Origin: Alphaproteobacteria bacterium
GTDB taxonomy: Bacteria > Pseudomonadota > Alphaproteobacteria > JACAEB01
Direction: 5' to 3'
DNA: 64,000 bases
NCBI GenBank assembly: GCA_024236075.1
Contig: JACKLE010000007.1
Location: 2,235-66,234, forward strand
The notes beneath the pieces are model-generated. The model was not told where the DNA came from, did not search any database, and saw only the letters and a list, made by a program, of their open reading frames with translations. This document shows positions 7,377-41,290 of the stretch, piece after piece. Made by a program: the position numbers and the translations under genes. Each line of letters opens with the position of its first letter. Positions within the stretch are counted from its first letter, which is position 1.

Positions 7377-7741
7377 CAGCCGCGCGGGTCGCCGCCCGCC
7401 AAAGCGAGGCTCCGGCCGCCCGGCATGCGATAGAAGCAGAGGCGCCCGAGGAGGGCCGTCGCCCGGCACGCATGGGCCCAGGCCGGCTCCTCGGCGTGCG
7501 GATGGTAGCGCGTCGCGCCGTGTGTCGGGTCGGCGAGGTCGCCCGACCAGACGCGGCAGGCGATGGCGACCGCGCGCGCGAAAGCCGGGTCGGCGAGATC
7601 GGGCCGCGGAAGGGCGCCCTCCCGCAGAATGCCCGCGCATGCCTCGCGCAGGCGCGCGATCGGGGGCTTGGCCGGCTCGACGGACAGGAGCTCGTCGAGC
7701 GCCCGATTGCGGATGGTCCAGGCGACGGCGACCTGGCAGAG
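7377..7741 (-). pseudogene. C-terminal fragment of a SleB-family cell-wall hydrolase, 5'-truncated by IS insertion
   Basis: My minus-strand translation reads LCQVAVAWTIRNRALDEL...ADPTHGATRYHPHAEEPAWAHACRATALLGRLCFYRMPG...*, ending at stop 7377..7379. The reading frame runs directly into the IS3 left end at 7742, with no start codon or N-terminal part. Confidence 0.7.
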
Positions 7742-9013
7742 TGCCCTACCCCCTCTGAAGTGGTCCTGGGACTATGATAGTCGGACCCTGAGAGTGGAGG
7801 CTTGTGATGCCGCGATGAAGGCAAACGGCAGAAGAAATATTGGGAAGCTGCGTGAGGTTGAGGTCCGGATCGGCCGGGGCATGACGGTTCAAGTGGTGAT
7901 CCGTGGGATCGGCGTGACCGAGCAGACCTACTACCGCTGGCGCAAAGAATATGGCGGCCTGAAGCTGGATCAGGCCAAACGGTTGAAGGACCTTGAGAGA
8001 GAGAGAGTAGAGAACGCCCGGCTGAAGAAAGCCGTCGCCGATCTGACACTCGACAAGATGATTTTGACTGAGGCCGCCTCGGGAAACTGGCAGGGCCCTC
8101 GCGCCGCCGGAAGTTCATCGACCATGCCTGCGAGAAGCTCGGTGTCTCCGGACGCCGGGCGTGCCAGGCGGTCGGCCAGCATCGCTCGACGCAGTGGCGA
8201 GCGCCGAGGAAGGCCGACGACGGAGACACGCCGACGGCGACGATCATACGCCTCGCGACGCGCTTCGGGCGTTACGGCTAACGACGCATCACGGCGTTGT
8301 TGAGAGCTGAAGGCTGGCGGGTGAACCACAAGCGTGTTGCGCGCATCTGGCGGCGCGAGAGCCTGAAAGTGCCGGCGCGACACAAGAAGCGCGGCCGTCT
8401 CTGGCTCAATGACGGCTCGTGCATTCGCTTGCGGCCAATGCATCGCAACCATGTCTGGGCCTATGACTTCGTCGAGGACAGAACGCGCGACGGGCGCAAG
8501 ATCCGCATGCTCACGGTGATCGACGAGTTCACGCGGGAATGCCTTGCGATCGAAGTGAACCGCCGCCTTAACAGCCAGGACGTTCTCGCAGTTCTGGCGC
8601 GGCTGTTCCTTGCGTGCGGCGTCCCTGGACATATTCGCAGCGACAATGGCTCCGAGTTCACAGCGAAGGCCGTCAGGAAGTGGCTCGCAATCATGAACGC
8701 GAAGACGCTCTACATCGAACCCGGAAGCCCATGGGAGAACGGCTACAATGAATCGTTCAACGGGAAATTGCGCGACGAATGTCTTAACACGGAGCTATTT
8801 TACTCGCTTCGCGAGGCGTAGATCCTCATCGAGGACTGGCGGCGTGAATATAATGCGATCCGACCCCATTCCTCGCTCGGATATCGTCCGCCGGCGCCGG
8901 AAACCTTTCAGCCGGCCAATCCGGCCTGCGCAATCTGAAAGCTCCAACCGGATCAGCCTTCCGCCGAAGCACGCTTTTCTGTTACATAGAACCCGGCTGC
9001 GCATACGGGGGCA
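7742..9013 (+). mobile_element. IS3-family insertion sequence, copy 1, transposase inactivated
   Basis: The left end is TGCCCTACCCCCTCTGAAGTGG and the right end is ...ACGGGGGCA (TG...CA termini). orfA contains GVTEQTYYRWRKEYGG...RLKDLERE...LKKAVADLTLDK. orfB contains [17 protein letters not shown]...[16 protein letters not shown]...[14 protein letters not shown]...IRSDNGSEF...[21 protein letters not shown]...RPHSSLGYRPPAPE. Confidence 0.85.
7815..8938 (+). pseudogene. IS3-family transposase orfAB with premature stops
   Basis: In the orfB frame, GRYG*RRITALL has a TAA near 8278 where GYRRI is expected, and SLREA*ILIEDWRR has a TAG at 8819..8821. Confidence 0.8.
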
Positions 9014-9121
9014 GGTCACTTCCGCCCACCCAACCCAGGGTAGACTTGCGTCGGTTCTTGTGTAGAGTTTCTATCCTGCCTAGACGGAAGCCGATGTTTC
9101 TCACCAAGGTAGCCGGAGATC

Positions 9122-9337
9122 ATGACAACAGAATCAGGCTCGAAAGGTAGCCGCAAAACGAACCTCGTCTACCTGCAACTGCTGGCGCAAGGTGAGGCTT
9201 TGAACCCGAGACACGCGGAAATGCCAAGTTCTGAGGAGGGTCTTGCGCTCGTGAGAGCCTTCTATGGAATTCGACATCGCGCGGATCGAGCGAAGGTCAT
9301 CGAGCTGGCACAAAAGCTTTTGAAGATTGCCAACTGA
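9122..9337 (+). CDS. Small hypothetical protein (71 aa), paralogue of the next ORF
   Basis: AT-richer ORF. It shares the motif EMPSxEEGLxLxRAFxxIRxxxDRxxVxELAxxLL with ORF 9350..9586. Confidence 0.4.
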   Translation: MTTESGSKGSRKTNLVYLQLLAQGEALNPRHAEMPSSEEGLALVRAFYGIRHRADRAKVIELAQKLLKIAN

Positions 9338-9349
9338 CCGCAGGAACAT

Positions 9350-9586
9350 TTGCGACGAAGGCCCTCATCTCGAAGCGAGGTCAATGTGACAGAGGACAAC
9401 GAGAAGGGGCCACGACGTGTTTGGCTTGCATCCGAATTCGACATTGACCCCGCGCCGAACATTGAAATGCCTTCGCCAGAGGAAGGATTGGAACTTCTAC
9501 GAGCGTTCTTCCGTATTAGGACAAAGAAAGATAGGGTTGCCGTCGTCGAACTGGCTCGGTCGCTTTTGGGTGAAAGCACACGTTGA
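9350..9586 (+). CDS. Small hypothetical protein (78 aa or shorter), paralogue of the previous ORF
   Basis: ...IEMPSPEEGLELLRAFFRIRTKKDRVAVVELARSLL aligns with the C-terminal half of ORF 9122..9337. The start codon is uncertain. Confidence 0.4.
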   Translation: MRRRPSSRSEVNVTEDNEKGPRRVWLASEFDIDPAPNIEMPSPEEGLELLRAFFRIRTKKDRVAVVELARSLLGESTR

Positions 9587-9671
9587 CACCAAGAGCGTCA
9601 CATTGGAGGGACTGGTAGTCCTCGACCCTGCTAAGCTGTTCTATCCTCTACAAATTTGCCCGATGCCCAGC

Positions 9672-9905
9672 TCAATTGAGTTTGAGTTTGCTGTCTCCAA
9701 TGTCAGTAACAAGATGAGCGCCATCGCTATCGTCTGTTAGTCTGAGTTCGCGAACGGCCTCTAGCCGCGCCATTTCGAGAAGGTAGGCCAATAGCCCGAG
9801 GTCACACTTTCCCGCTAGTGCTTTCAGAGCAGTGGTGAGTTCGGAAATGTGAACCAAAGCGTTGTGACGTTCGCATTCGTTTTGCCATTCATATTCTGAT
9901 GACAT
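9672..9905 (-). CDS. Small hypothetical protein (77 aa) downstream of the dioxygenase gene
   Basis: ORF on the same strand, 35 nt downstream of the phyH-like stop, with the same AT-richer composition. No recognisable motif. Confidence 0.35.
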   Translation of the reverse strand: MSSEYEWQNECERHNALVHISELTTALKALAGKCDLGLLAYLLEMARLEAVRELRLTDDSDGAHLVTDIGDSKLKLN

Positions 9906-9940
9906 GTTCTCATTCCCTATCTCTATCGGCCCCGCGCGAT

Positions 9941-10840
9941 CTATGCTGCCGCGCGCCCGTCGCTGGGCTTGAGGAAACCGCTGAGAATTCTGTCCATCTC
10001 GGGCGACAGGACGTCGTCTGCGGAGATATCAGCCGATCCCTGCAGCGGCAGTAGGTCCATTGGATCTCGGCATTCAAATAGCCCGAGGTTGGGGCGGTGA
10101 GCGGCATAGCCAATCAACGAGGCTAGTTCCGGTGGCAGATTGCGAGCGACATCAAGAGGCACTGCGAGGTATTGATTTTCATACTGACGGAGCCAGCCCA
10201 GATTGTAGCCCATTACAACTCCGATCCGGGGTTCGTTGGAGTTGTTTGCTCCCGCTCCGTGGACAGTCGAACCAAGATAGAGCAGGGCGCTGCCCGGCTG
10301 CATCTCAGCTGCCACGGGTTCAATATCCCTTTGTGCGTTTGTTGCACTCCATAGGTGGCTTCCCGGGACGACGTGGGTCCCGCCGTTCTCCCTTGTGAAC
10401 TTCGTAAGGGCCCACATCACGTTCACCATGGGCTCGATCGCGGCAGGACAGTACGGATACATCCCGCGGTCCCTATGCAGGACCTGCGCGATTTCGCCTG
10501 GCAACACGGCGATTGCCTGAGTGATGTGCAGCTGAAACCGCTCACATTGCGTGAGAGTCAGCGACATGGTTCTCAGGATCGATGCTTGCAGAGCGAGAAC
10601 GTGCGTAGACGGACTCTTGGCGACGAGTCCGTTTACACGTTTCGTATTTAGTCCAACAAAGATGCCCTGACCTGGCGGAGTCTTCTCCAGTAGAGGCGCT
10701 ATCTCCTTTTCAATGGCGTCCATCTGCGCTGCCGGCGTTAAGCCCTCGACAATGACACAGCCTGATTGGACTAGTTGGGCCCGGATATCCTCGGGCGGCG
10801 CATCGGCGCCGAGGCGAGGAACGCCCTGACTCGCTGTCAT
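9941..10840 (-). CDS. Phytanoyl-CoA dioxygenase (PhyH) family Fe(II)/2-oxoglutarate-dependent oxygenase
   Basis: 299 aa with an HxD motif (QVLHRDRG), a distal His (GSTVHGAGAN) and a general PhyH-like layout (GTHVVPGSHLW). Its ATG at 10838..10840 directly abuts the luxI stop at 10841..10843. Confidence 0.8.
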   Translation of the reverse strand: MTASQGVPRLGADAPPEDIRAQLVQSGCVIVEGLTPAAQMDAIEKEIAPLLEKTPPGQGIFVGLNTKRVNGLVAKSPSTHVLALQASILRTMSLTLTQCERFQLHITQAIAVLPGEIAQVLHRDRGMYPYCPAAIEPMVNVMWALTKFTRENGGTHVVPGSHLWSATNAQRDIEPVAAEMQPGSALLYLGSTVHGAGANNSNEPRIGVVMGYNLGWLRQYENQYLAVPLDVARNLPPELASLIGYAAHRPNLGLFECRDPMDLLPLQGSADISADDVLSPEMDRILSGFLKPSDGRAAA

Positions 10841-11515
10841 CTAGGCCGCCCGCTGCTGGTGCTTCTTGAGGACGTCGGCATGAACGGTGCGCGCGGCAAT
10901 GATGCCTTCCGCCGATACGATGGGTTCCTTCAAGCCCAGGAATGCTCGAACGGACTCAAGGCTGAGGTCTTCAAAGTCGACTTTGACGCCTATGACCTCC
11001 AGGTCACCCATGGTCACGGGAAGACCCATCGCGGTTGCCTTGAAGCCGGTCGCCACCATTCTCTGAAAGCGCCAGAGCTCGACCACGGCTGTCACGCCCT
11101 TCAATCCGAGTGCGCAGGCGGTTTCCAGCCACCCGATGTGAATTTCGATCGTGACCGGGTTGGGTCGGCCGAGCTTCTTTGTCTCCGGCGCAACGACGAT
11201 ACGGCTGACGTCATAGATCTCCGGATCGCTGGGAACTCCATAGCGATCAAAAAGGTTCGGAAAATGCTTGGCTGACAGCGTCGTCAGATTTGACGCAGCG
11301 AGTCGAACGCAACCGACAACTCCATCGCATTCGGCACGCGTGCTGACAACGTAGATTGTGTGTGCGTGGTCACTTTCGTCAATGTCGCGGCCATCGGGCT
11401 TGTAGACCTCTTCCCAACCCATCTGTTCAAAGAGGACTCGATGACGAAGGCGAAACATCTGGTCGAATTTGACTTCGTGTTCATGACGGTTGCCGCTCGT
11501 TAGGATTGTGATCAT
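10841..11515 (-). CDS. luxI: Acyl-homoserine-lactone synthase (LuxI family)
   Basis: MITILTSGNRHEHEVKFDQMFRLRHRVLFEQMGWEEVYKPDGRDIDESDHAHTIYVV...VSRIVVAP matches the autoinducer-synthase signature RxRxxVFxxxxGW...E.D.(F/S)D. A GGAGGG Shine-Dalgarno precedes the ATG at 11515. Confidence 0.9.
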   Translation of the reverse strand: MITILTSGNRHEHEVKFDQMFRLRHRVLFEQMGWEEVYKPDGRDIDESDHAHTIYVVSTRAECDGVVGCVRLAASNLTTLSAKHFPNLFDRYGVPSDPEIYDVSRIVVAPETKKLGRPNPVTIEIHIGWLETACALGLKGVTAVVELWRFQRMVATGFKATAMGLPVTMGDLEVIGVKVDFEDLSLESVRAFLGLKEPIVSAEGIIAARTVHADVLKKHQQRAA

Positions 11516-11599
11516 CAAACCCTCCATGAATTGTAGACGGAGGGAATTGGACGCGAACCGATGGCGTTCGGCCATTCTCTGAACGGAGGTAATTTGTGT

Positions 11600-12322
11600 T
11601 CAGATTCGGAGGAGGCGATGCCTCAACGCCTCGATCACCGCGGATATTCGTCGCTTTGCGCCGAGCTTTCGCTTCGCGTTCTCGACGTGCATATGGACAG
11701 TGGTCTCGCTAATCGTAAGAATTTCTCCGATCTCGGAATCTGATCGCCCTGTTGCAACCCAAGCTAAGATTTCGCGCTCGCGTCCGGTTAGGTTTGGTGC
11801 CTGCTCAATCAACGGATTTGCGAGGCTCAGGATTCGTGCATGTGTGTAGACACCGAGCAAACGGAGTATTTGCGAAACAGATGGGTCGTCATCGACGCGT
11901 GGGCCCGCAAATGCCGCTGCAGCGAAGTAGCCGTTAGGCCCTAGAATTGGAAATGCGTAGCCATCCGAGAGGCCAAACTCCTTCCCCTCGTTCAATATCT
12001 GCCATCCCTTGGTCCTTGGCCTTGTCTTTTCACGAATTTCTTTCCACGGGATACCACCCCCCCCTTCCATCAATGTCGTAACTACTGGATCAAAATATCT
12101 ATATTTATTTACGAAATACCTATTTCTCCATTCTAAATCATAGTTCAACATCCACCCGTGATCGCGTGATACTAGTCCTGCAAGGGGGCATACGACAAAA
12201 TATTCTATACCGAACGCATTTAAATTTTTTTCGATCAACGCCTTAAGTTCTGTTTCTGTCGTGGCACCTTCCATGTTCTCAAGAAGATCGAAGAATTTCT
12301 TTTTTGCGGTCGCGTCTGACAT
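11600..12322 (-). CDS. luxR: LuxR-family quorum-sensing transcriptional regulator (autoinducer-binding domain plus GerE HTH)
   Basis: 240 aa. The N-terminal domain carries the conserved W...Y...DP...W...G pattern (EWRNRYFVNKYRYFDPV, GIPW). The C-terminus reads LTGREREILAWVATGRSDSEIGEILTISETTVHMHVENAKRKLGA. Confidence 0.9.
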   Translation of the reverse strand: MSDATAKKKFFDLLENMEGATTETELKALIEKNLNAFGIEYFVVCPLAGLVSRDHGWMLNYDLEWRNRYFVNKYRYFDPVVTTLMEGGGGIPWKEIREKTRPRTKGWQILNEGKEFGLSDGYAFPILGPNGYFAAAAFAGPRVDDDPSVSQILRLLGVYTHARILSLANPLIEQAPNLTGREREILAWVATGRSDSEIGEILTISETTVHMHVENAKRKLGAKRRISAVIEALRHRLLRI

Positions 12323-12408
12323 TGTGTTCTCGATCTTGCCTGGCCCAGCTTGAACATCATCGTATTGATGCGCATCCTGCGTGCCTGGGCAACAGGGGTC
12401 GAATTGTA

Positions 12409-12440
12409 AGTCCGTATGATGAACGTTTACATGACGGACT
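12409..12440. promoter_or_regulatory. Imperfect 32-bp palindrome upstream of luxR, candidate operator
   Basis: AGTCCGTATGATGAACGTTTACATGACGGACT has half-sites AGTCCGT / ACGGACT and lies about 90 nt upstream of the luxR start. Confidence 0.3.
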
Positions 12441-12471
12441 GTCCTAGTTGATCGCCATTTCGGACTGGCTA

Positions 12472-13317
12472 GGTAGGGGACTCATTTGATCCACGCGACG
12501 ACGATGGCTGCGAGAGCGATTGCGGAGATGTAGTTTTGCGCGAGACGGTCATATCGCGTTGCGATGCGCCGCCAGTTTTTGAGCTTGCAGAACAGTCTCT
12601 CCACGACGTTGCGTCGTTTGTAGGCCGTTTCGTCGAGCGGATAGGGGACGGTGCGGGAGGCCGTTGAGGGAATGACGGCCTTGATCGTTCTGCTCTTGAG
12701 GTAGGAGCGAAAATGCTCCGCGTCATAGGCTCTATCGGCAAGCAGCCGCTTTGGGGCCAGGACCGCGTCGACGAGCGGCTTGGCCATGGTGATGTCGGCG
12801 ACATTGCCCGGCGTCAGGGCGAAGGCGACCGGCCTGCCGCAATCATCGGCCAGACAGTGGATTTTGCTTGTTCTGCCGCCGCGCGAGCGCCCAATCGCTT
12901 GCGCTTCCTCCCCCTTTTTCCGCCTGCGGCGGAGCGGTGGGCTTTGACATGGCTGCTATCGAGCGACAGCTCTTCGGGGACAGGTCCTGCGGCCGCCATT
13001 TTGGCGAACAGGCGTTGCCAGACCCCTCGGGCAGACCATCGATTGTAGCGGTTGTAGATCGTCGTATAGGGTCCGTACTCGGACGGACAATCCCGCCACC
13101 GGCATCCGGTCTTGAGAACATGCAGGATGCCGCTCATCACGCGCCGGTCATCCACACGCGGCTTGCCCGGCTTTCCGCGCGGCAGATGCGGGTCGATGAG
13201 AGCCCAGGCTTCGTCGGACAGCCAAAACAGATGCGACATCTCGGTCTCCTCGGGTAGTCGAACCCAAAAGGAAACTGATTTGCACAAAGAATCAATGCTT
13301 TGTATGAGTTCCCAACC
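12472..13317 (-). mobile_element. IS5-family (IS427-group-like) insertion sequence, apparently intact
   Basis: The terminal inverted repeats are GGTAGGGGACTCAT (left) and, as the reverse complement of the right end, GGTTGGGAACTCAT. The flanks are cTA and TAg, consistent with insertion into CTAG with TA duplication. It encodes a two-frame transposase. Confidence 0.85.
12482..13239 (-). CDS. IS5-family transposase (orfA-orfB joined by a putative programmed -1 frameshift)
   Basis: orfA reads MSHLFWLSDEAWALIDPHLPRGKPGKPRVDDRRVMSGILHVLKTGCRWRDCP...HVKAHRSAAGGK. At GGAAAAAGGGGG the other frame continues ...QAIGRSRGGRTSKIHCLADDCGRPVAFALTPGNVADITMAKPLV...LFCKLKNWRRIATRYDRL. Confidence 0.8.
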
Positions 13318-13576
13318 TAGGGCGTACTTCGCAATTGTTGCTGCGTTCGGCGGGTTCATTTGGTCCGTGAGGGTGGTGCAGATGGGACAGGTTGAGACCC
13401 GTGAGCGCAGCTGGCGATTGACGCGCACGTCGAGCATACCCATTCGCATGCCGCCGCTCGGGTGGTCGCGCTTCAGCGGGTCGACGACGAGGAGGGTGCA
13501 GTCGTTTGGACGCGCATCCTAAGAGCGACTGTTTGGCTTTCAGATGGCAGCGATCACGGCGAATTGCAGCGACTGT

Positions 13577-13870
13577 TCAAAGCTGAACATCGTGCGTCGT
13601 CAGGAATCGCGTCAACTCTCCGAGCGACACGATTGTCGGGCTCAAGTTCTGAAGTGACCCGAGCTGACCGTCGTCAGGCAAAGTACCCGTCAGCACACCG
13701 GCGACATGGCCAGTGTCCAGATCCACAATGGGTCCGCCGAAGAACGAACCGACATTCTCGCCACTGTCTATAGTGGGCCATTCCTTGATTGCCCATCGCC
13801 CTCGCTTTGCCTCCAGCCTTCCAGCGATCGTGACGATTGACGGAACGGGGCGGTTTTTCCTTGAGACGCC
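13577..13870 (-). pseudogene. Possible C-terminal fragment of a trypsin-like peptidase, 5'-truncated by IS3 copy 2
   Basis: My minus-strand translation reads ...IVTIAGRLEAKRGRWAIKEWPTIDSGENVGSFFGGPIVDLDTGHVAGVLTG...HDVQL*. This resembles a GxSGGP...G.V.G serine-protease C-terminus with a degenerate active-site box. The frame runs into the IS end at 13871. Confidence 0.3.
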
Positions 13871-15167
13871 TGCCCTACCCCTTCTGAAGTGGTCCTGGGA
13901 CTATGATAGTCGGACCCTGAGAGAGGAGGCTTGTGATGCCGCGATGAAGGCATACGGCAGAAGAAATTATTGGGAAGCTGCGTGAGGTTGAGGTCCGGAT
14001 CGGCCGGGGCATGACGGTTCAAGTGGTGATCCGTGGGATCGGCGTGACCGAGCAGACCTACTACCGCTGGCGCAAAGAATATGGCGGCCCGAAGCTGGAT
14101 CAGGTCAAGCGGCTGAAGGACCTTGAGAGAGAGAACAGTCGGCTGAAGCGGGCTGTTGCCGATCTCACGCTCTATGCTCTGATCCTGAAAGAAGCCGAAA
14201 AGGGAAACTTCTAAGCCCCGCGCGTCGCCGGCGAGCGATCCGGTATGTCCGCGAGACCATCTGCGTATCGGAGCGTCGGGCATGCCGGGTATTCGGTCAG
14301 CATTGCGCGACCCAACGTAAGATCGCCAGGACGCCTGACGATGAAGACGCCTTGGCGGGCGACATCATCGAGCTGGCGAAGACCTATGGACGCAATGGCT
14401 ACCGTCGGATCACGGCCCTACTCAAAGAGGCGGGCTGGGCCGTGAACCACAAGCGGGTCGAACGGATCTGGCGGCGTGAGGGGCTAAGAGCGCCTGCGAG
14501 ACAGCGCAAACGGGGTCGGCTCTGGCTCGACGATGGGTCTTGCCTCCGGCTGAGACCGGAATGCCGCAACCACGTTTGGACGTATGATCTTGTCGAGGAC
14601 CGCACCCAAGAGGGAAAGAAGATCCGCATGCTCACCGTCATCGATTCGTTCAGCCACACATGCCTGGCTATCACCGTCGAACGGTGCCTGAACAGCGGCA
14701 ACGTGCTCGACACCTTCGCGGATCTCTTCCTCGAGCATGGGCCGCCCAAGCACATTCGTCCGGACAACGGCCTAGAGTTCATTGCGACCGCCGTGCGGAA
14801 TGGCTCGCCCATATCGGCGTGAAGACGCTCTACATCGAACCGGGCTCACCTTGGGAGAACGGGTACAACGAGTCCTTCAACGGGAAGACTCCGCGATGAG
14901 CTGCTGAGCGGAGAGATCTTCTCGACGCTGAAAGAGGCCCAGACCCTGATCGAAGCATGGCGCCGTCACTACAACACCGTCAGGCCTCACAGCGCCTTGG
15001 GATACAGCCCGCCCGCGCCAGGGGCCTTCGCTCCCATGATCTTCCCAACAGCTCGACCCAAGGAGCTGGGTCTCCTGTCCGTCCTTGAGGTCGTAGAGGT
15101 CGAGCATCTCGCCGATCTCGGGATGGCCATGCCGAGCGTTCCCAACCAAGTTTCAACATGGGGGGCA
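13871..15167 (+). mobile_element. IS3-family insertion sequence, copy 2, transposase inactivated by several frameshifts
   Basis: The left end is TGCCCTACCCCTTCTGAAGTGG and the right end is ...CATGGGGGGCA. Transposase similarity is spread over at least 4 ORF fragments (13944.., 14011..14214, 14352..14822, 14660..14899, 14997..) in different frames. A 1-bp insertion (AAATTATTGGG versus AAATATTGGG in copy 1) truncates orfA after 13 codons. Confidence 0.85.
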
Positions 15168-17981: not shown

Positions 17982-18496
17982 GGCGCGTGCGGGCGGGGGC
18001 TGGATTCTGTTTGAAGCGTCCCACAATCGTGACGTCATCCCGCGCTTCAGGCGCGGGACCCATACTCCCGGCGTTTGTGGTCGTGCGTTCCGCGGTCGAG
18101 CCGCAGCACGACTGCCGCAGTCGGGCGATCAGAATTGATCGCGACACGCTCCAGGTCCGGTCATGACTTCTTGAACAGGTCCTGTTGTCTGCCTTGTGCT
18201 TCGCGCTTCGCCTTCTTGAACGGCGTGGTGTCGATCCAAGGCATAGGCGGGCGCTTGCCCTCGAATAGATCCTCAATAGTCAGAATTCGGATCCTTGAGA
18301 ACTGACCATACTCGGTTTCATAGTAACCAGCAGAAATCGCTTCCTTCCGCATCGGCGCCGTCGGCTCGGTCAACGTGAGGAAGATTCCAAGTTTTGCTTT
18401 CTCGCGCTCTACCGTTGCGATGAGGGGGACCTATATACGAGCTTGACCCAGCCGCCGTGACATCCTATATTCTGAGGGTGGCAATGGAGAGGCGCG

Positions 18497-19411
18497 ATGA
18501 CCAAGCAATTCGACAGCCTGATTGAGCTGATGGAAGCGCTCCCGGATGAGCAGTCCGCGATTGACCACTTCACCGCCATACGTTGGAAGGATGGGGCTTT
18601 CTGCCCCCATTGCGGCTCGACCAAGATCTATCACTTCAGCGACAAGCGTTCGCACAAGTGTGGGGCCTGCCGAGCGCGCTTCTCAATCAAAGTCGGAACG
18701 ATCTTCGAGGACACGAAGATCCCATTGCGCAAGTGGATGATGGCTATTTGGCTTATCACGTCGCACAAGAAAGGCATCGCGAGCACGCAACTGGCTAAGG
18801 ACATCAAGGTCACTCAGAAGACCGCATGGTTTATGCTCCACCGCCTTCGCCATGCCGCGATGACGAAATCCTTCAGCGCGCCTCTCAAGGGTACCGTCGA
18901 AGCTGACGAGACCTATGTTGGCGGTAAGGCCAAGAACAAGCACGCATCCAAGCGTGAGAAGGGTACGCAAGGTGGAAGGGGCAAGGTGATTGTCTTTGGG
19001 ATGCTGGAGCGCGAGGGCCAGCTTCGCACGCTGCATATCAGCAATCTAAAGGCGCACAACGTACACGGCATTATCTCCGACCATGTCGAGCCCGGCGCCA
19101 ACATCATGACAGACGAACATGTTTCGTTTGTGGGGCTTCAAGGGCGCTATCACCATCACACCGTCAACCACTCAGCCGGCGAGTACGTGCGCCATTTCTT
19201 CGCCCACACGAACGGAATTGAGAGCGTCTGGGCGCTTCTGAAGCGTCAAATTATTGGGATACATCATTGGGTTAGCCAAAAGCACCTTTCACGCTATCTC
19301 GGAGAGATGGCATGGCGCTACAATCGTCGGAACTTGGAGGAAGGCGACCGTTTGAACGCCTTGCTTTCGTCAACAGATGGGCGGCTCACCTATCGAGCCT
19401 TGGTTGCATGA
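18497..19411 (+). CDS. IS1595-family transposase (N-terminal zinc ribbon plus DDE domain)
   Basis: 304 aa, with FTAIRWKDGAFCPHCGSTKIYHFSDKRSHKCGACRARFSIKVGTIFEDTKIPLRKWMMAIWLITSHKKGIASTQLAKDIKVTQKTAWFMLHRLR...EADETYVGG... Confidence 0.9.
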   Translation: MTKQFDSLIELMEALPDEQSAIDHFTAIRWKDGAFCPHCGSTKIYHFSDKRSHKCGACRARFSIKVGTIFEDTKIPLRKWMMAIWLITSHKKGIASTQLAKDIKVTQKTAWFMLHRLRHAAMTKSFSAPLKGTVEADETYVGGKAKNKHASKREKGTQGGRGKVIVFGMLEREGQLRTLHISNLKAHNVHGIISDHVEPGANIMTDEHVSFVGLQGRYHHHTVNHSAGEYVRHFFAHTNGIESVWALLKRQIIGIHHWVSQKHLSRYLGEMAWRYNRRNLEEGDRLNALLSSTDGRLTYRALVA

Positions 19412-19659
19412 CAATGCGAAAGAAGCAGTCACAGAAAAAGCAGACAAAAAAGGAGTTGGTCGGGATGCCTTTTGATGAGGCATTGGAACGCTTTATCCTA
19501 ACCGACCCGGATGAATTGTCCGAGGCGCTGCAATCCTATGACGCCTTGAAAGAGGAACATGATCGCTTGTCTGACGATGTTGATGCCGATCAGGACCGAG
19601 TTATTCGCCGAATGAGGGGGAAGGCAGCCGATGGCAAAGTCAAAAAAAGAACAGACTGA
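19408..19659 (+). CDS. Passenger ORF 1: small, highly charged hypothetical protein (83 aa)
   Basis: Its ATG overlaps the transposase stop (ATGA). The sequence MTMRKKQSQKKQTKKELVGMPFDEALERFILTDPDELSEALQSYDALKEEHDRLSDDVDADQDRV... has a basic N-terminus and an acidic helical middle. Confidence 0.5.
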   Translation: MTMRKKQSQKKQTKKELVGMPFDEALERFILTDPDELSEALQSYDALKEEHDRLSDDVDADQDRVIRRMRGKAADGKVKKRTD

Positions 19660-20485
19660 ACAATCGGTTTTGGATTTCCTTTATGTCGATGCAGTTCGTG
19701 TACGATCCTTTATTTCGCAGCTTGGTGAGATAGGTGTTCTTGACGGGGTGACAGAAACGGACGCATTGGACGCATCCAAGGCAACCACCTTTTCAGGGTC
19801 AATTGGTGGCGAACCTATCATTGGTTCGGGCGTCGAGAGGACAAGCGAGCGAGCCACATCAGAATCACAATCGCGAACCTACGATGTGCAGCACCGGCTT
19901 CCGGTTAGTCTCCTCAATTTGCTAGAAACGCAAAACTTAATTCAACGAAAAATTGTCGATGCCGCGATAGGTGACTTAGTTGTCTGCTCTGGAACATTAT
20001 CGATAATCGATACTTCATTCCATCGTGAGCTTTATTCGTCAGCTAAGATGAAGGAACTTTCTGTTCGGCGATCAGAGGAAAGACTCAAAAAAGAGGGGCA
20101 GACGTATGACCTGGAAAGTCTGCACATCGAACTTGATATGATCCGCATGATCCCGCCCTTTGTGCAGGCCCTAGTAGATACTGGCAATGTTGCCGTATGG
20201 CTTACCTTGCGACCGGAGAGCCTCACAACGCCTCCTCACGAGATCAACATGAAACACGGGGTTGTGCTTCAAGGTAGTTGGACATTGCTTGGTATCAAAG
20301 ACTCTACTCCTTCTCTTGCGCCCGAAATTTTGCAGGATGCAACTCGACTCAAGGGCCGATTTGAAAACCAATCAATGATCGCTGAGATGATCGATGTGCT
20401 CACTGCATTGCGCGGGTATGTGGGACGACCGCCATCCTCATATGGGGTGACACCGCTTCTAATTTACAGAGAAGCTAACACCTAG
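19631..20485 (+). CDS. Passenger ORF 2: hypothetical protein (284 aa), no family recognised
   Basis: It overlaps ORF 1 by 29 nt and its stop (20483..20485) lies in the partial extension of the right inverted repeat (...TGACC), 8 nt before the core repeat at 20494. The N-terminus is MAKSKKEQTEQSVLDFLYVDAVRVRSFISQLGEIGVLDG... AT-richer codon usage is continuous with the transposase. Confidence 0.65.
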   Translation: MAKSKKEQTEQSVLDFLYVDAVRVRSFISQLGEIGVLDGVTETDALDASKATTFSGSIGGEPIIGSGVERTSERATSESQSRTYDVQHRLPVSLLNLLETQNLIQRKIVDAAIGDLVVCSGTLSIIDTSFHRELYSSAKMKELSVRRSEERLKKEGQTYDLESLHIELDMIRMIPPFVQALVDTGNVAVWLTLRPESLTTPPHEINMKHGVVLQGSWTLLGIKDSTPSLAPEILQDATRLKGRFENQSMIAEMIDVLTALRGYVGRPPSSYGVTPLLIYREANT

Positions 20486-20837
20486 GTCACACACGTATAT
20501 AGGCCCCCGATGAGGTCACGGATCATCCCTACTCCAACGTTCTCGCCGCCCTTCACGGATACCACTGCCTTCTCCGTCACCTTCCCGTCAGGCTTGAAAA
20601 AGCACGTTGTAGGAGGCGTTCGAGTTGAAGGGCGGGTCGAGATAGACGAGGTCGACGGATTCGTCGGCAATGTGCCCACGGAGAATGTCGAGATTGTCGC
20701 CATAGTATAGCTTGTTCGTCATCCGCCCCGCCCTGCCCGATCCGCCGTCGCGACTTGGTGGCTCAAGATTCCGCTTGCGCGGAAATTTCTATTGGCGCAT
20801 TGTGTTCTTGTTTTGTTCGATTCGCAAGGAGGCCTCG

Positions 20838-21014
20838 ATGGCAACGAATCCGCCGCCCGGCGACGGCCACCGCAAGGGTGCGGTGCGCGATCGCTCCCAG
20901 GTCTACAATCCGCAGAACGAGAAATGGACGAAGCGCGACAAGGGCACGGGGCAGTTCATGGACCAGAAAGCCGATTCCAAGCCGTTCAAAGGGGTTCGCA
21001 AAGAGCGCCCCTAA
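20838..21014 (+). CDS. Small hypothetical protein (58 aa)
   Basis: An AGGAGG Shine-Dalgarno lies 5 nt upstream of the ATG. The sequence is MATNPPPGDGHRKGAVRDRSQVYNPQNEKWTKRDKGTGQFMDQKADSKPFKGVRKERP. Confidence 0.5.
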   Translation: MATNPPPGDGHRKGAVRDRSQVYNPQNEKWTKRDKGTGQFMDQKADSKPFKGVRKERP

Positions 21015-40829: not shown

Positions 40830-40934
40830 GGCCCGCCGATGGCCTCCAAACGCCGAAGGGGCGCGATGATCGCCGATTCTCGCCGGCGCGCCCGCCTTCA
40901 GCCTTTCGTTGAGGCGGCGCGCTTCCTATATTGC

Positions 40935-41290
40935 TCCTGTCGGCTCGCGCCGACTATGGCGATAAACGGACGCGTAATAAGCGGTTCGGACCCGGGGGCA
41001 GTACCCGGCGCCTCCACCATATCCTCCCTCGCGGCCGTCGGGCCGGGGGGACGGCCTCGAGGCTCGAGGCCAGGCCATGGGGGCGAACCAGGATCGACGG
41101 ACGTGTAAAGGTGCTCTTTTCGCCCGGGATGGTACCGCCGTTAACGGACCGCCAGAATAGTTGCCAATGACAACTATGCTGAGGTGCGTCTCGCCGCCTA
41201 AGGCGGTCGGACAAACCGACTTGAAGCCCTAGGCCTTCAGCGGGTCTAGGCGGGGTCCGGAGGGCACCTGGCAACAGAAGCCCTCCACCT
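40935..41290 (+). ncRNA. ssrA: tmRNA (ssrA), circularly permuted two-piece alphaproteobacterial type; boundaries approximate
   Basis: The tag reading frame GCC AAT GAC AAC TAT GCT GAG GTG CGT CTC GCC GCC TAA (41163..41201) encodes ANDNYAEVRLAA. The acceptor 3' strand CGCCTCCACCA ends at 41019, upstream of the 5' strand GGGGGCGAACCAGGATCGACGG (from 41079). These pair with a G:U at position 3. Confidence 0.8.

Follow-up and report, generated by a model that had tools for sequence, protein, structure and literature searches.

The window analyzed here, 64,000 nt of contig JACKLE010000007.1 (assembly GCA_024236075.1, Alphaproteobacteria bacterium; all coordinates are window positions), contains at 18426-20507 what is, with high probability, a single, apparently intact transporter insertion sequence (IS) of the IS1595 family that moved as one unit with a cargo separable from its transposition module. 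The 2,082 bp of this element comprise, in this order, a left terminal repeat, the transposase gene tnp, two further open reading frames (ORFs), ORF2 and ORF3, and a right terminal repeat.

The element, its ends and its target

The features of the element and of the gene that it interrupts are as follows.

18161-18425, minus strand: distal piece of the target gene, the C-terminal part of a DNA methyltransferase (ATVEREKAKLGIF...KKS*), corresponding approximately to residues 455-511 of a 574-aa Mesorhizobium methyltransferase
18418-18425, no strand: left target-site duplication CGATGAGG, identical to 20508-20515 and touching the left terminus
18426-18452, plus strand: left terminal inverted repeat, core GGGACCTATATACG at 18426-18439, extended arm to about 18451
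18443-18471, plus strand: promoter-like TTGACC-17 nt-TATATT that agrees with the consensus at 10 of 12 positions and lies 26 nt ahead of the ATG of tnp
18497-19411, plus strand: tnp, 915 nt, apparently intact IS1595-family transposase of 304 aa that combines a zinc ribbon at the N-terminus with a DDE domain
19408-19659, plus strand: ORF2, 83 aa, ATGA-coupled to tnp, N-terminal motif MPFDEALERFILTDPDEL
19631-20485, plus strand: ORF3, 284 aa, an intact member of a large uncharacterized family, with all family-invariant residues kept
20482-20507, minus strand: right terminal inverted repeat, core GGGGCCTATATACG (the reverse complement of 20494-20507), with an arm that overlaps the ORF3 stop
20508-20515, no strand: right target-site duplication CGATGAGG, touching the right terminus
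20508-20722, minus strand: proximal pieces of the target gene, namely the N-terminal 44 aa (20588-20722) and a stretch in another frame (...KAVVSVKGGENVGVGMIRDLI, approximately 20509-20571) that continues across the IS

The cores of the two terminal repeats are identical at 13 of the 14 positions, as the first-pass annotation of this DNA had read them, and a repeat search extends the arms to 27 nt with 81% complementarity (18425-18451/20482-20508). When up to two mismatches are allowed, 3 occurrences of the terminal motif are counted in the 64 kb, versus 0.14 expected; exact copies are confined to the two termini, which are in inverted orientation. The octamer CGATGAGG is present directly outside both ends, again as originally reported; given that it occurs 13 times in the 64-kb window, the probability that two copies would abut the two termini precisely by coincidence is negligible. 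There is one tnp gene and one pair of repeats, with no second copy in the window, which is not the layout of a composite transposon.

The genes within the repeats are tightly packed: an ATGA overlap joins the tnp stop to the ORF2 start, ORF2 and ORF3 overlap by 29 nt, and the TAG stop of ORF3 falls within the extended right repeat, all in agreement with the first reading. The G+C content (GC) is 52% for the element, 55% for tnp, 48% for the passenger genes and 70-74% for the flanking core genes; the earlier count of 24 G+C among the 60 nucleotides of 19921-19980 was reproduced. The -35 hexamer of the promoter-like site is located inside the extended left repeat, and its CTTGACC and TATA(T/A)T blocks are also kept in one of the sister elements described below (L001); we infer from these motifs that the site is a putative promoter. 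The three genes would probably be read as one operon from it, with translation coupled along tnp, ORF2 and ORF3 via the ATGA overlap and the 29-nt overlap. The element itself was transposed, by cut-and-paste or by copying, as a single piece of 2,082 bp, making the 8-bp duplication.

The affiliation of the transposase is unequivocal. It matches Pfam PF12762 (E 1.9e-44, profile positions 1-153 of 153) and PF12760 (E 2e-11), as well as NCBIfam NF033547 over the full length (E 5.5e-62), and is 70-77% identical to more than 100 homologs, with more than 5,500 homologs at E<=1e-60. The DDE_Tnp_IS1595 domain with the zinc ribbon, the short terminal repeats and the 8-bp duplication together place the element in the IS1595 family, and the presence inside the repeats of non-transposition genes that were mobilized along with tnp makes it a transporter IS. 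Minimal members of this family span 0.7-1.1 kb. The termini, which include GGGACCTAT, GGGAATTAT, GGGATTTAT and GGCAGTTAT, have the form GGnnnyTAT and resemble ggnnatTAT, which we take to be the terminal consensus given for ISNwi1 in the ISfinder table. The third acidic residue appears to be E (NGIES...K), the catalytic motif of the ISNwi1 subgroup being presumably DDEK, and we further assume that this subgroup includes passenger-carrying elements of 1.75-4.75 kb.

IS1595 elements with passenger genes were defined as 'transporter IS' by Siguier, Gagnevin & Chandler (2009, Res Microbiol 160:232; concept taken from its citation in PMC3129680), and the present element adds to this already described class. 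As in the ISNwi1-type transporter IS, a single zinc-ribbon DDE transposase is combined with short repeats and 8-bp duplications, and the passengers within the repeats travel with the transposase. The differences from the described transporter IS are that a cargo consisting of ORF2 and a DUF6414-like ORF3, as well as the exchange of cargo among near-identical backbones, are absent from the literature searched.

When the element and one copy of the octamer are excised in silico, ...GMIRDLI becomes contiguous with ATVEREKAKLGIF... in a single frame, and the fused peptide, which corresponds to residues 431-511 of the intact 574-aa Mesorhizobium enzyme, aligns without gaps over the junction to plasmid-borne DNA methyltransferases. 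This gap-free alignment to intact methylases implies that the pre-insertion allele contained one octamer rather than two; the first-pass annotation had recognized that its reading would fail if an uninterrupted allele turned out to carry both. The in-frame fusion described in that annotation thus stands, but the target is not an intact host gene as it had supposed. What remains is a low-GC, internally deleted methyltransferase remnant, with the first 44 codons and approximately 115 C-terminal codons in different frames and some 385 codons missing compared to the 574-aa homolog. The low GC of the remnant (53-55%) indicates that the target itself is foreign DNA. The deletion junction, at approximately 20571-20590, does not touch the IS end, and hence the deletion is an event independent of the insertion: the methylase was a pseudogene already before the insertion, or became one after it, independently of the IS. 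The foreign patch in which the IS resides measures about 3 kb and is bordered by a PBP1A-type gene and by the DUF1465/DUF1192 genes. At the right edge of this low-GC patch lies a small ORF, MATNPPPGDGHRKGAVRDRSQVYNPQNEKWTKRDKGTGQFMDQKADSKPFKGVRKERP (20838-21014, plus strand), that was also called in the Logan contig L002 (3767-3943).

Sister elements and an exchangeable cargo slot

The strongest evidence that the three genes form one mobile unit comes from 14 sister elements (loci labeled L001 and so on), 10 with the tnp-ORF2-ORF3 arrangement and 4 with other cargo, that were found by a word-index search with ORF3, a profile scan of GTDB species genomes with a 10-sequence ORF3 alignment and a lookup of eight close homologs of the transposase. 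Including the window copy, there are 11 complete tnp-ORF2-ORF3 elements at 11 sites, each flanked by a different perfect 8-bp duplication. These elements span 1,992-2,128 bp, with the exception of L070, which amounts to 3,293 bp with a nested IS3. The duplications of the ten sisters with the tnp-ORF2-ORF3 arrangement are the following.

L001: CTGTTTAA
L005: TTCGAATT
L009 (Reyranella): ATTTGAAT
L027 (Nitratireductor alexandrii): CTTTTAAT
L030: AAACAAAT
L048: CATTCGAA
L064: CAAAAAAA
L070: TACAATTT
L072: ATAAATTT
L073: CTATTCAC

Among all 14 sisters, the duplication is perfect in 13, with a single mismatch in the remaining one (L074), and the terminus GGnnnyTATATAC together with GTGCTTGACCCA is kept at both ends throughout. 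Wherever ORF3 occurs with the transposase, the right boundary of the element is the repeat directly after ORF3, so that a different right boundary, named at the outset as an outcome that would undermine the single-unit reading, is not observed. A word-index search with ORF3 retrieved the identical protein of the metagenome-assembled genome and only one relative, 32% identical, on a metagenome contig (L001; 2,033 bp) that carries tnp, a small ORF and ORF3, with the ATGA coupling and homologous 26-nt repeats. Decayed copies also exist, namely L004 and L062; the latter, on a Methylocystis rosea plasmid, was the only match in a nucleotide search of plasmids with the whole element and consists of the left repeat, tnp and a truncated ORF2, with neither ORF3 nor the right repeat. 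The conclusion, already drawn in the first-pass annotation, that the entire 2,082 bp inserted in one event is thus upheld by the agreement of the sister copies, the repeats, the duplication and the excision alignment, and the recurrence of this three-gene unit, with these repeats, at other sites, which that annotation had suggested looking for, is realized in the ten further complete elements with their ten different duplications.

Several of these loci display additional features. In L070 (2141-5433), the IS3-family element is nested between the left repeat and tnp, and the unit adjoins a TIR-nSTAND NTPase gene. L064 (2933-4924) is flanked by an MT-A70/BglII restriction-modification pair and an IS3 on one side and by a DndB gene on the other side. 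In L030 (5920-6918), a frameshift splits ORF3.

The 15 duplications (11 from the ORF3 elements and 4 from the elements with other cargo) are only 23% GC overall, compared to 44-66% GC in the surrounding kilobase; ATAATTTT, TAAAAAAA and ATTTGAAT are examples. The composition of these octamers suggests that this IS clade prefers AT-rich targets, a preference that would explain the landing in foreign, horizontally acquired DNA.

Across ten ORF3-carrying elements, the identity between transposases ranges from 42% to 91% and that between the ORF3 proteins from 26% to 43%, and the two are uncorrelated (r = 0.02). The transposases of L001 and L072 are 91% identical, compared to 33% for their ORF3 proteins; at the nucleotide level, the identity between these two elements is 80-93% from the left repeat through tnp, drops to noise level at the 3' end of tnp and rises again only within roughly the final 90 nt. 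Moreover, the same termini enclose other cargo in four sisters (72-76% transposase identity). L069 (2926-5963; Allosphingosinicella vermicomposti) carries a P63C-domain protein gene that is ATGA-coupled to tnp, an ORF of 141 aa and a SocA/Panacea antitoxin gene, L076 (3429-6852) carries an ORF of 305 aa and a PemK/MazF toxin gene, and L065 and L074 carry genes of unknown function. A PADLOC scan of 9 alternative cargo proteins gave no credible defense match, and none of the eight close transposase homologs examined belonged to a tnp-only element.

Because closely similar transposases are accompanied by divergent ORF3 alleles or by unrelated cargo, the segment that separates tnp from the right repeat behaves like a slot with exchangeable contents. 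The cargo would be swapped by recombination between the tnp 3' end, or the ORF2 5' motif, and the right end. The presence of variable cargo beside a conserved transposition module is reminiscent of the Tn7-like elements with defense and toxin-antitoxin cargo (bioRxiv 10.1101/2021.08.23.457393). Unlike those elements, with their multi-gene machinery and tens of kilobases of cargo, the present ones are single-transposase IS of 2-3.4 kb with 1-3 cargo genes.

The ORF2-ORF3 cassette within and outside the IS

ORF3 belongs to a large family. An exhaustive profile search yielded 892 ORF3-family clusters (50% identity) at E<=1e-3, 276 of them at E<=1e-30; among the 150 matches listed, almost all lengths are within about 250-330 aa. 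The invariant residues include D15, Y18, D20, G215, W217, D224, G265 and R280. ORF3 matches phrog_9699 (function unknown) over its full length (E 2e-51), and its residues 15-133 match Pfam DUF6414 with 33 bits versus a cutoff of 25; DUF6414 matches above the cutoff were obtained for 40 of 74 ORF3 relatives. The AlphaFold2 model of ORF3 is of good quality (pLDDT 89, pTM 0.81), and Foldseek searches of PDB and BFVD with this model returned nothing at E<=0.001 (TM <=0.22); likewise, a profile search of PDB sequences with ORF3 gave nothing below E 0.88. The closest relative, P0005 (locus L063), is 40% identical. In a neighbor-joining tree of the ORF3 relatives, all IS-borne copies belong to one of the two major branches, interleaved with free-standing copies; the attempt to use this tree to discriminate between single and multiple capture by the IS led to no conclusion, the tree being unreliable at 25-40% identity.

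ORF2 has no match in Pfam, NCBIfam or PADLOC. A small ORF of 60-85 aa that overlaps the ORF3 start is present in approximately 47 of the 56 loci listed, and BLAST clustering alone grouped the small upstream ORFs of 40 loci. This family has a conserved C-terminal tail, GARxTKHRFRL, and its stop codon is embedded in the codons of the ORF3 motif SV(Y/F)DF. The N-terminal part behaves differently: the motif ...PL.LD(M/I)PF.EAL.RF..TDP.EL is found in the tnp-coupled small ORF whatever cargo follows (L001, L004, L005, L027, L048, L064, L065, L072, L074, L076 and L062; 19408-19500 in the window) and also in some free-standing ORF2 genes (L010, L018, L054). L009 and L030 have a different ORF2 N-terminus, and in L069 a basic, PL.LD-type start is attached to the P63C protein. 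The N-terminal motif may be a component of the IS backbone, or else a stump of an ancestral ORF2 left after the replacement of the cargo.

In most genomes, the cassette is not associated with a transposase at all. Among the 53 loci with an ORF3 relative identified in the genome scan, a full transposase is encoded directly upstream in 5 and a truncated one in 1, and about 47 contain ORF2-ORF3 without any transposase. The cassette is widespread, being represented in Proteobacteria, Acidobacteria and Bacteroidota, and no conserved neighbor other than the small ORF2 was detected across the 53 loci. Phages carry it as well, namely Moraxella Mcat13/17, Acinetobacter qsb1 and Bordetella IFTN phages: in Mcat17 and qsb1, it is inserted between tail genes and the tape-measure gene, and in Bordetella IFTN2, it adjoins the integrase. 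The free-standing copies are found in mixed, in many cases prophage-like, contexts, with six repressor matches to phrog_4, several anti-repressors, and Peptidase_S24, terminase and tape-measure genes in the vicinity. The TATATAC core is located downstream of ORF3 in the IS-associated loci. No transposase-less derivatives akin to miniature inverted-repeat transposable elements were found, the free-standing loci having yielded one isolated one-mismatch match to the TATATAC core (L019), with no upstream partner. Judged by these gene neighborhoods, ORF2-ORF3 is an apparently self-contained accessory cassette, not a part of the transposition machinery.

Possible functions of the cargo and significance

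The suggestion that we favor, tentatively and at somewhat less than even odds, is that the cassette acts in conflicts with phages or other mobile elements, through exclusion, abortive infection or addiction. It is prompted by four features of the sequences, namely the moron-like positions of the cassette in phages, the partial relation to DUF6414, the extreme divergence of the alleles and the presence of toxin-antitoxin genes in the same slot. Further hints in this direction are the frequent location of free-standing copies near phage repressor and anti-repressor genes and the proximity of sister IS copies to restriction-modification or Dnd genes and to a TIR-NTPase gene. A function of this kind would confer a selectable benefit on the IS.

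Two known systems provide points of comparison. DUF6414 is reported to be the DolA component of the Dodola anti-phage system (bioRxiv 10.1101/2024.10.26.620412; PMC11514479), which combines DolA, with its DUF6414 domain, and the ClpB-like DolB (Millman et al. 2022, as summarized in PMC11514479). The likeness consists in the match of ORF3 residues 15-133 to DUF6414 above the curated cutoff, and the difference in the partner, here an overlapping ORF of 60-85 aa. The identification of ORF3 as a Dodola component was rejected given that there is no PADLOC match to Dodola, that only the N-terminal half resembles DUF6414 and that the DolB partner is missing. The cassette also resembles the morons and the superinfection-exclusion or defense genes of temperate phages in that it occupies accessory positions, near CI-like repressors and anti-repressors in bacterial loci; unlike phage morons, the window cassette rides on an IS.

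Several observations weigh against the interpretation presented here, with respect to the insertion as well as to the cargo. No empty-site allele was found when an exact 20-mer (left flank plus octamer) was compared to metagenome contigs, and the exact element is known in one copy only, which leaves recent activity in this host unsupported. The ORF2 of the window lacks the canonical GARxTKHRFRL tail: a TGA terminates it 15 nt prematurely, and the ORF3 motif is SVLDF, which eliminates the usual embedded stop. No ORF2 accompanies the gene for P0005, the closest relative of ORF3; together with the missing tail, this indicates that the two-gene logic may fail for the window copy. Part of ORF2 may belong to the IS backbone. 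The DUF6414 match is weak and confined to the N-terminal half of ORF3, a PADLOC scan of the three window proteins and 74 ORF3 relatives yielded no credible defense match (E<=0.01), and there is no ClpB-like DolB partner in the element or in the 53 loci. Separately, the matches of the 20-mer in L060 and L061 were considered as empty or second sites and rejected as chance matches, these loci having nothing else in common with the window.

Among the alternatives to a conflict function, a rather unlikely one is that the cassette is a phage-derived accessory pair with a role outside defense and addiction, such as lysogenic conversion or host physiology, that was hitch-hiked by the IS. The full-length match to phrog_9699, the location of copies inside structural or immunity regions of phages, the absence of any match to defense models and the novel fold are all compatible with such a role. 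However, the phage positions are classic moron sites, next to repressors, anti-repressors and the integrase, rather than parts of the conserved core, and the extreme allele divergence, the swapping between backbones and the toxin-antitoxin company in the slot fit conflict genes better.

It is rather unlikely, too, that ORF2-ORF3 is a toxin-antitoxin-like addiction module that stabilizes the IS or its DNA and has no anti-phage activity. Such modules typically have a small gene upstream that overlaps with a larger one downstream, as seen here, and the same slot holds PemK/MazF in L076 and the Panacea antitoxin pair in L069. Yet known toxin or antitoxin domains are absent from both ORF2 and ORF3, the size of ORF3 is unusually great among type II toxins, and both the encoding of P0005 without ORF2 and the loss of the ORF2 tail in the window are difficult to reconcile with a constitutively lethal ORF3.

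We regard it as improbable that ORF2 and ORF3 are not cargo but accessory transposition proteins, such as regulators, target selectors or immunity factors. Such a role could account for the retention of the gene order and the ATGA coupling across transposases that are 43-77% identical to that of the window, and for the presence of the ORF2 N-terminal motif next to tnp in every sister, even without ORF3. It is contradicted by the occurrence of ORF2-ORF3 without a transposase in approximately 47 of the 53 genome loci and in phages, by the ORF3-less sisters with clean 8-bp duplications, which evidently transposed without ORF3, and by the lack of co-divergence between ORF3 alleles and transposases. 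Finally, the insertion of a minimal IS1595 (about 1.1 kb) next to two resident genes, with a right repeat and octamer that are coincidental, is hardly credible: IS1595 members of 0.7-1.1 kb do exist and ORF2-ORF3 homologs are mostly free-standing, but the ATGA overlap leaves no repeat-like sequence between tnp and ORF2, the terminus recurs exactly only once, after ORF3, ten further three-gene copies end at the same place with their own 8-bp duplications, excision of 2,082 bp plus the octamer restores the methylase frame without a gap, and none of the 8 close transposase homologs is tnp-only.

Two other features of the window are unrelated to the element. A second low-GC island (7563-14822, 53-61% GC), with gene identities read from the translations, looks composite-transposon-like and would be involved in quorum sensing. 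At its edges are IS3-family transposase fragments (7563-8821 and 14352-14822), and between them, all on the minus strand, are genes for a PhyH-like dioxygenase (9941-10840), a luxI-type acyl-homoserine lactone synthase (10841-11575), a luxR-type regulator (11600-12322) and an IS5-like transposase (12814-13449). At 40900-41289 (plus strand), there is an alphaproteobacterial two-piece (permuted) transfer-messenger RNA gene with the tag peptide ANDNYAEVRLAA (Rfam RF01849, 267 bits; ARAGORN), which confirms that the host is an alphaproteobacterium.

To return to the transporter IS, the element is better annotated as a 2,082-bp unit than as a transposase followed by two 'hypothetical proteins'. It ties a large protein family, with a full-length match to phrog_9699 and a partial one to DUF6414, to three vehicles, namely IS elements, prophages and free-standing islands, and demonstrates the swapping of cargo alleles between almost identical transposase backbones, in a slot shared with toxin-antitoxin genes. 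It is conceivable, if somewhat doubtful, that this large IS1595 clade consists of minimal shuttles with an exchangeable slot, the most common cargo being an uncharacterized two-gene anti-phage or exclusion system that spreads via transposition of the IS into AT-rich horizontal DNA. In the literature searched, there was no paper linking IS1595 with anti-phage cargo, and DUF6414 was encountered there only in a review. The cassette is a cheap, well-defined candidate for defense or addiction screens, and the IS clade offers a compact model of how the smallest transposons gain and exchange cargo.

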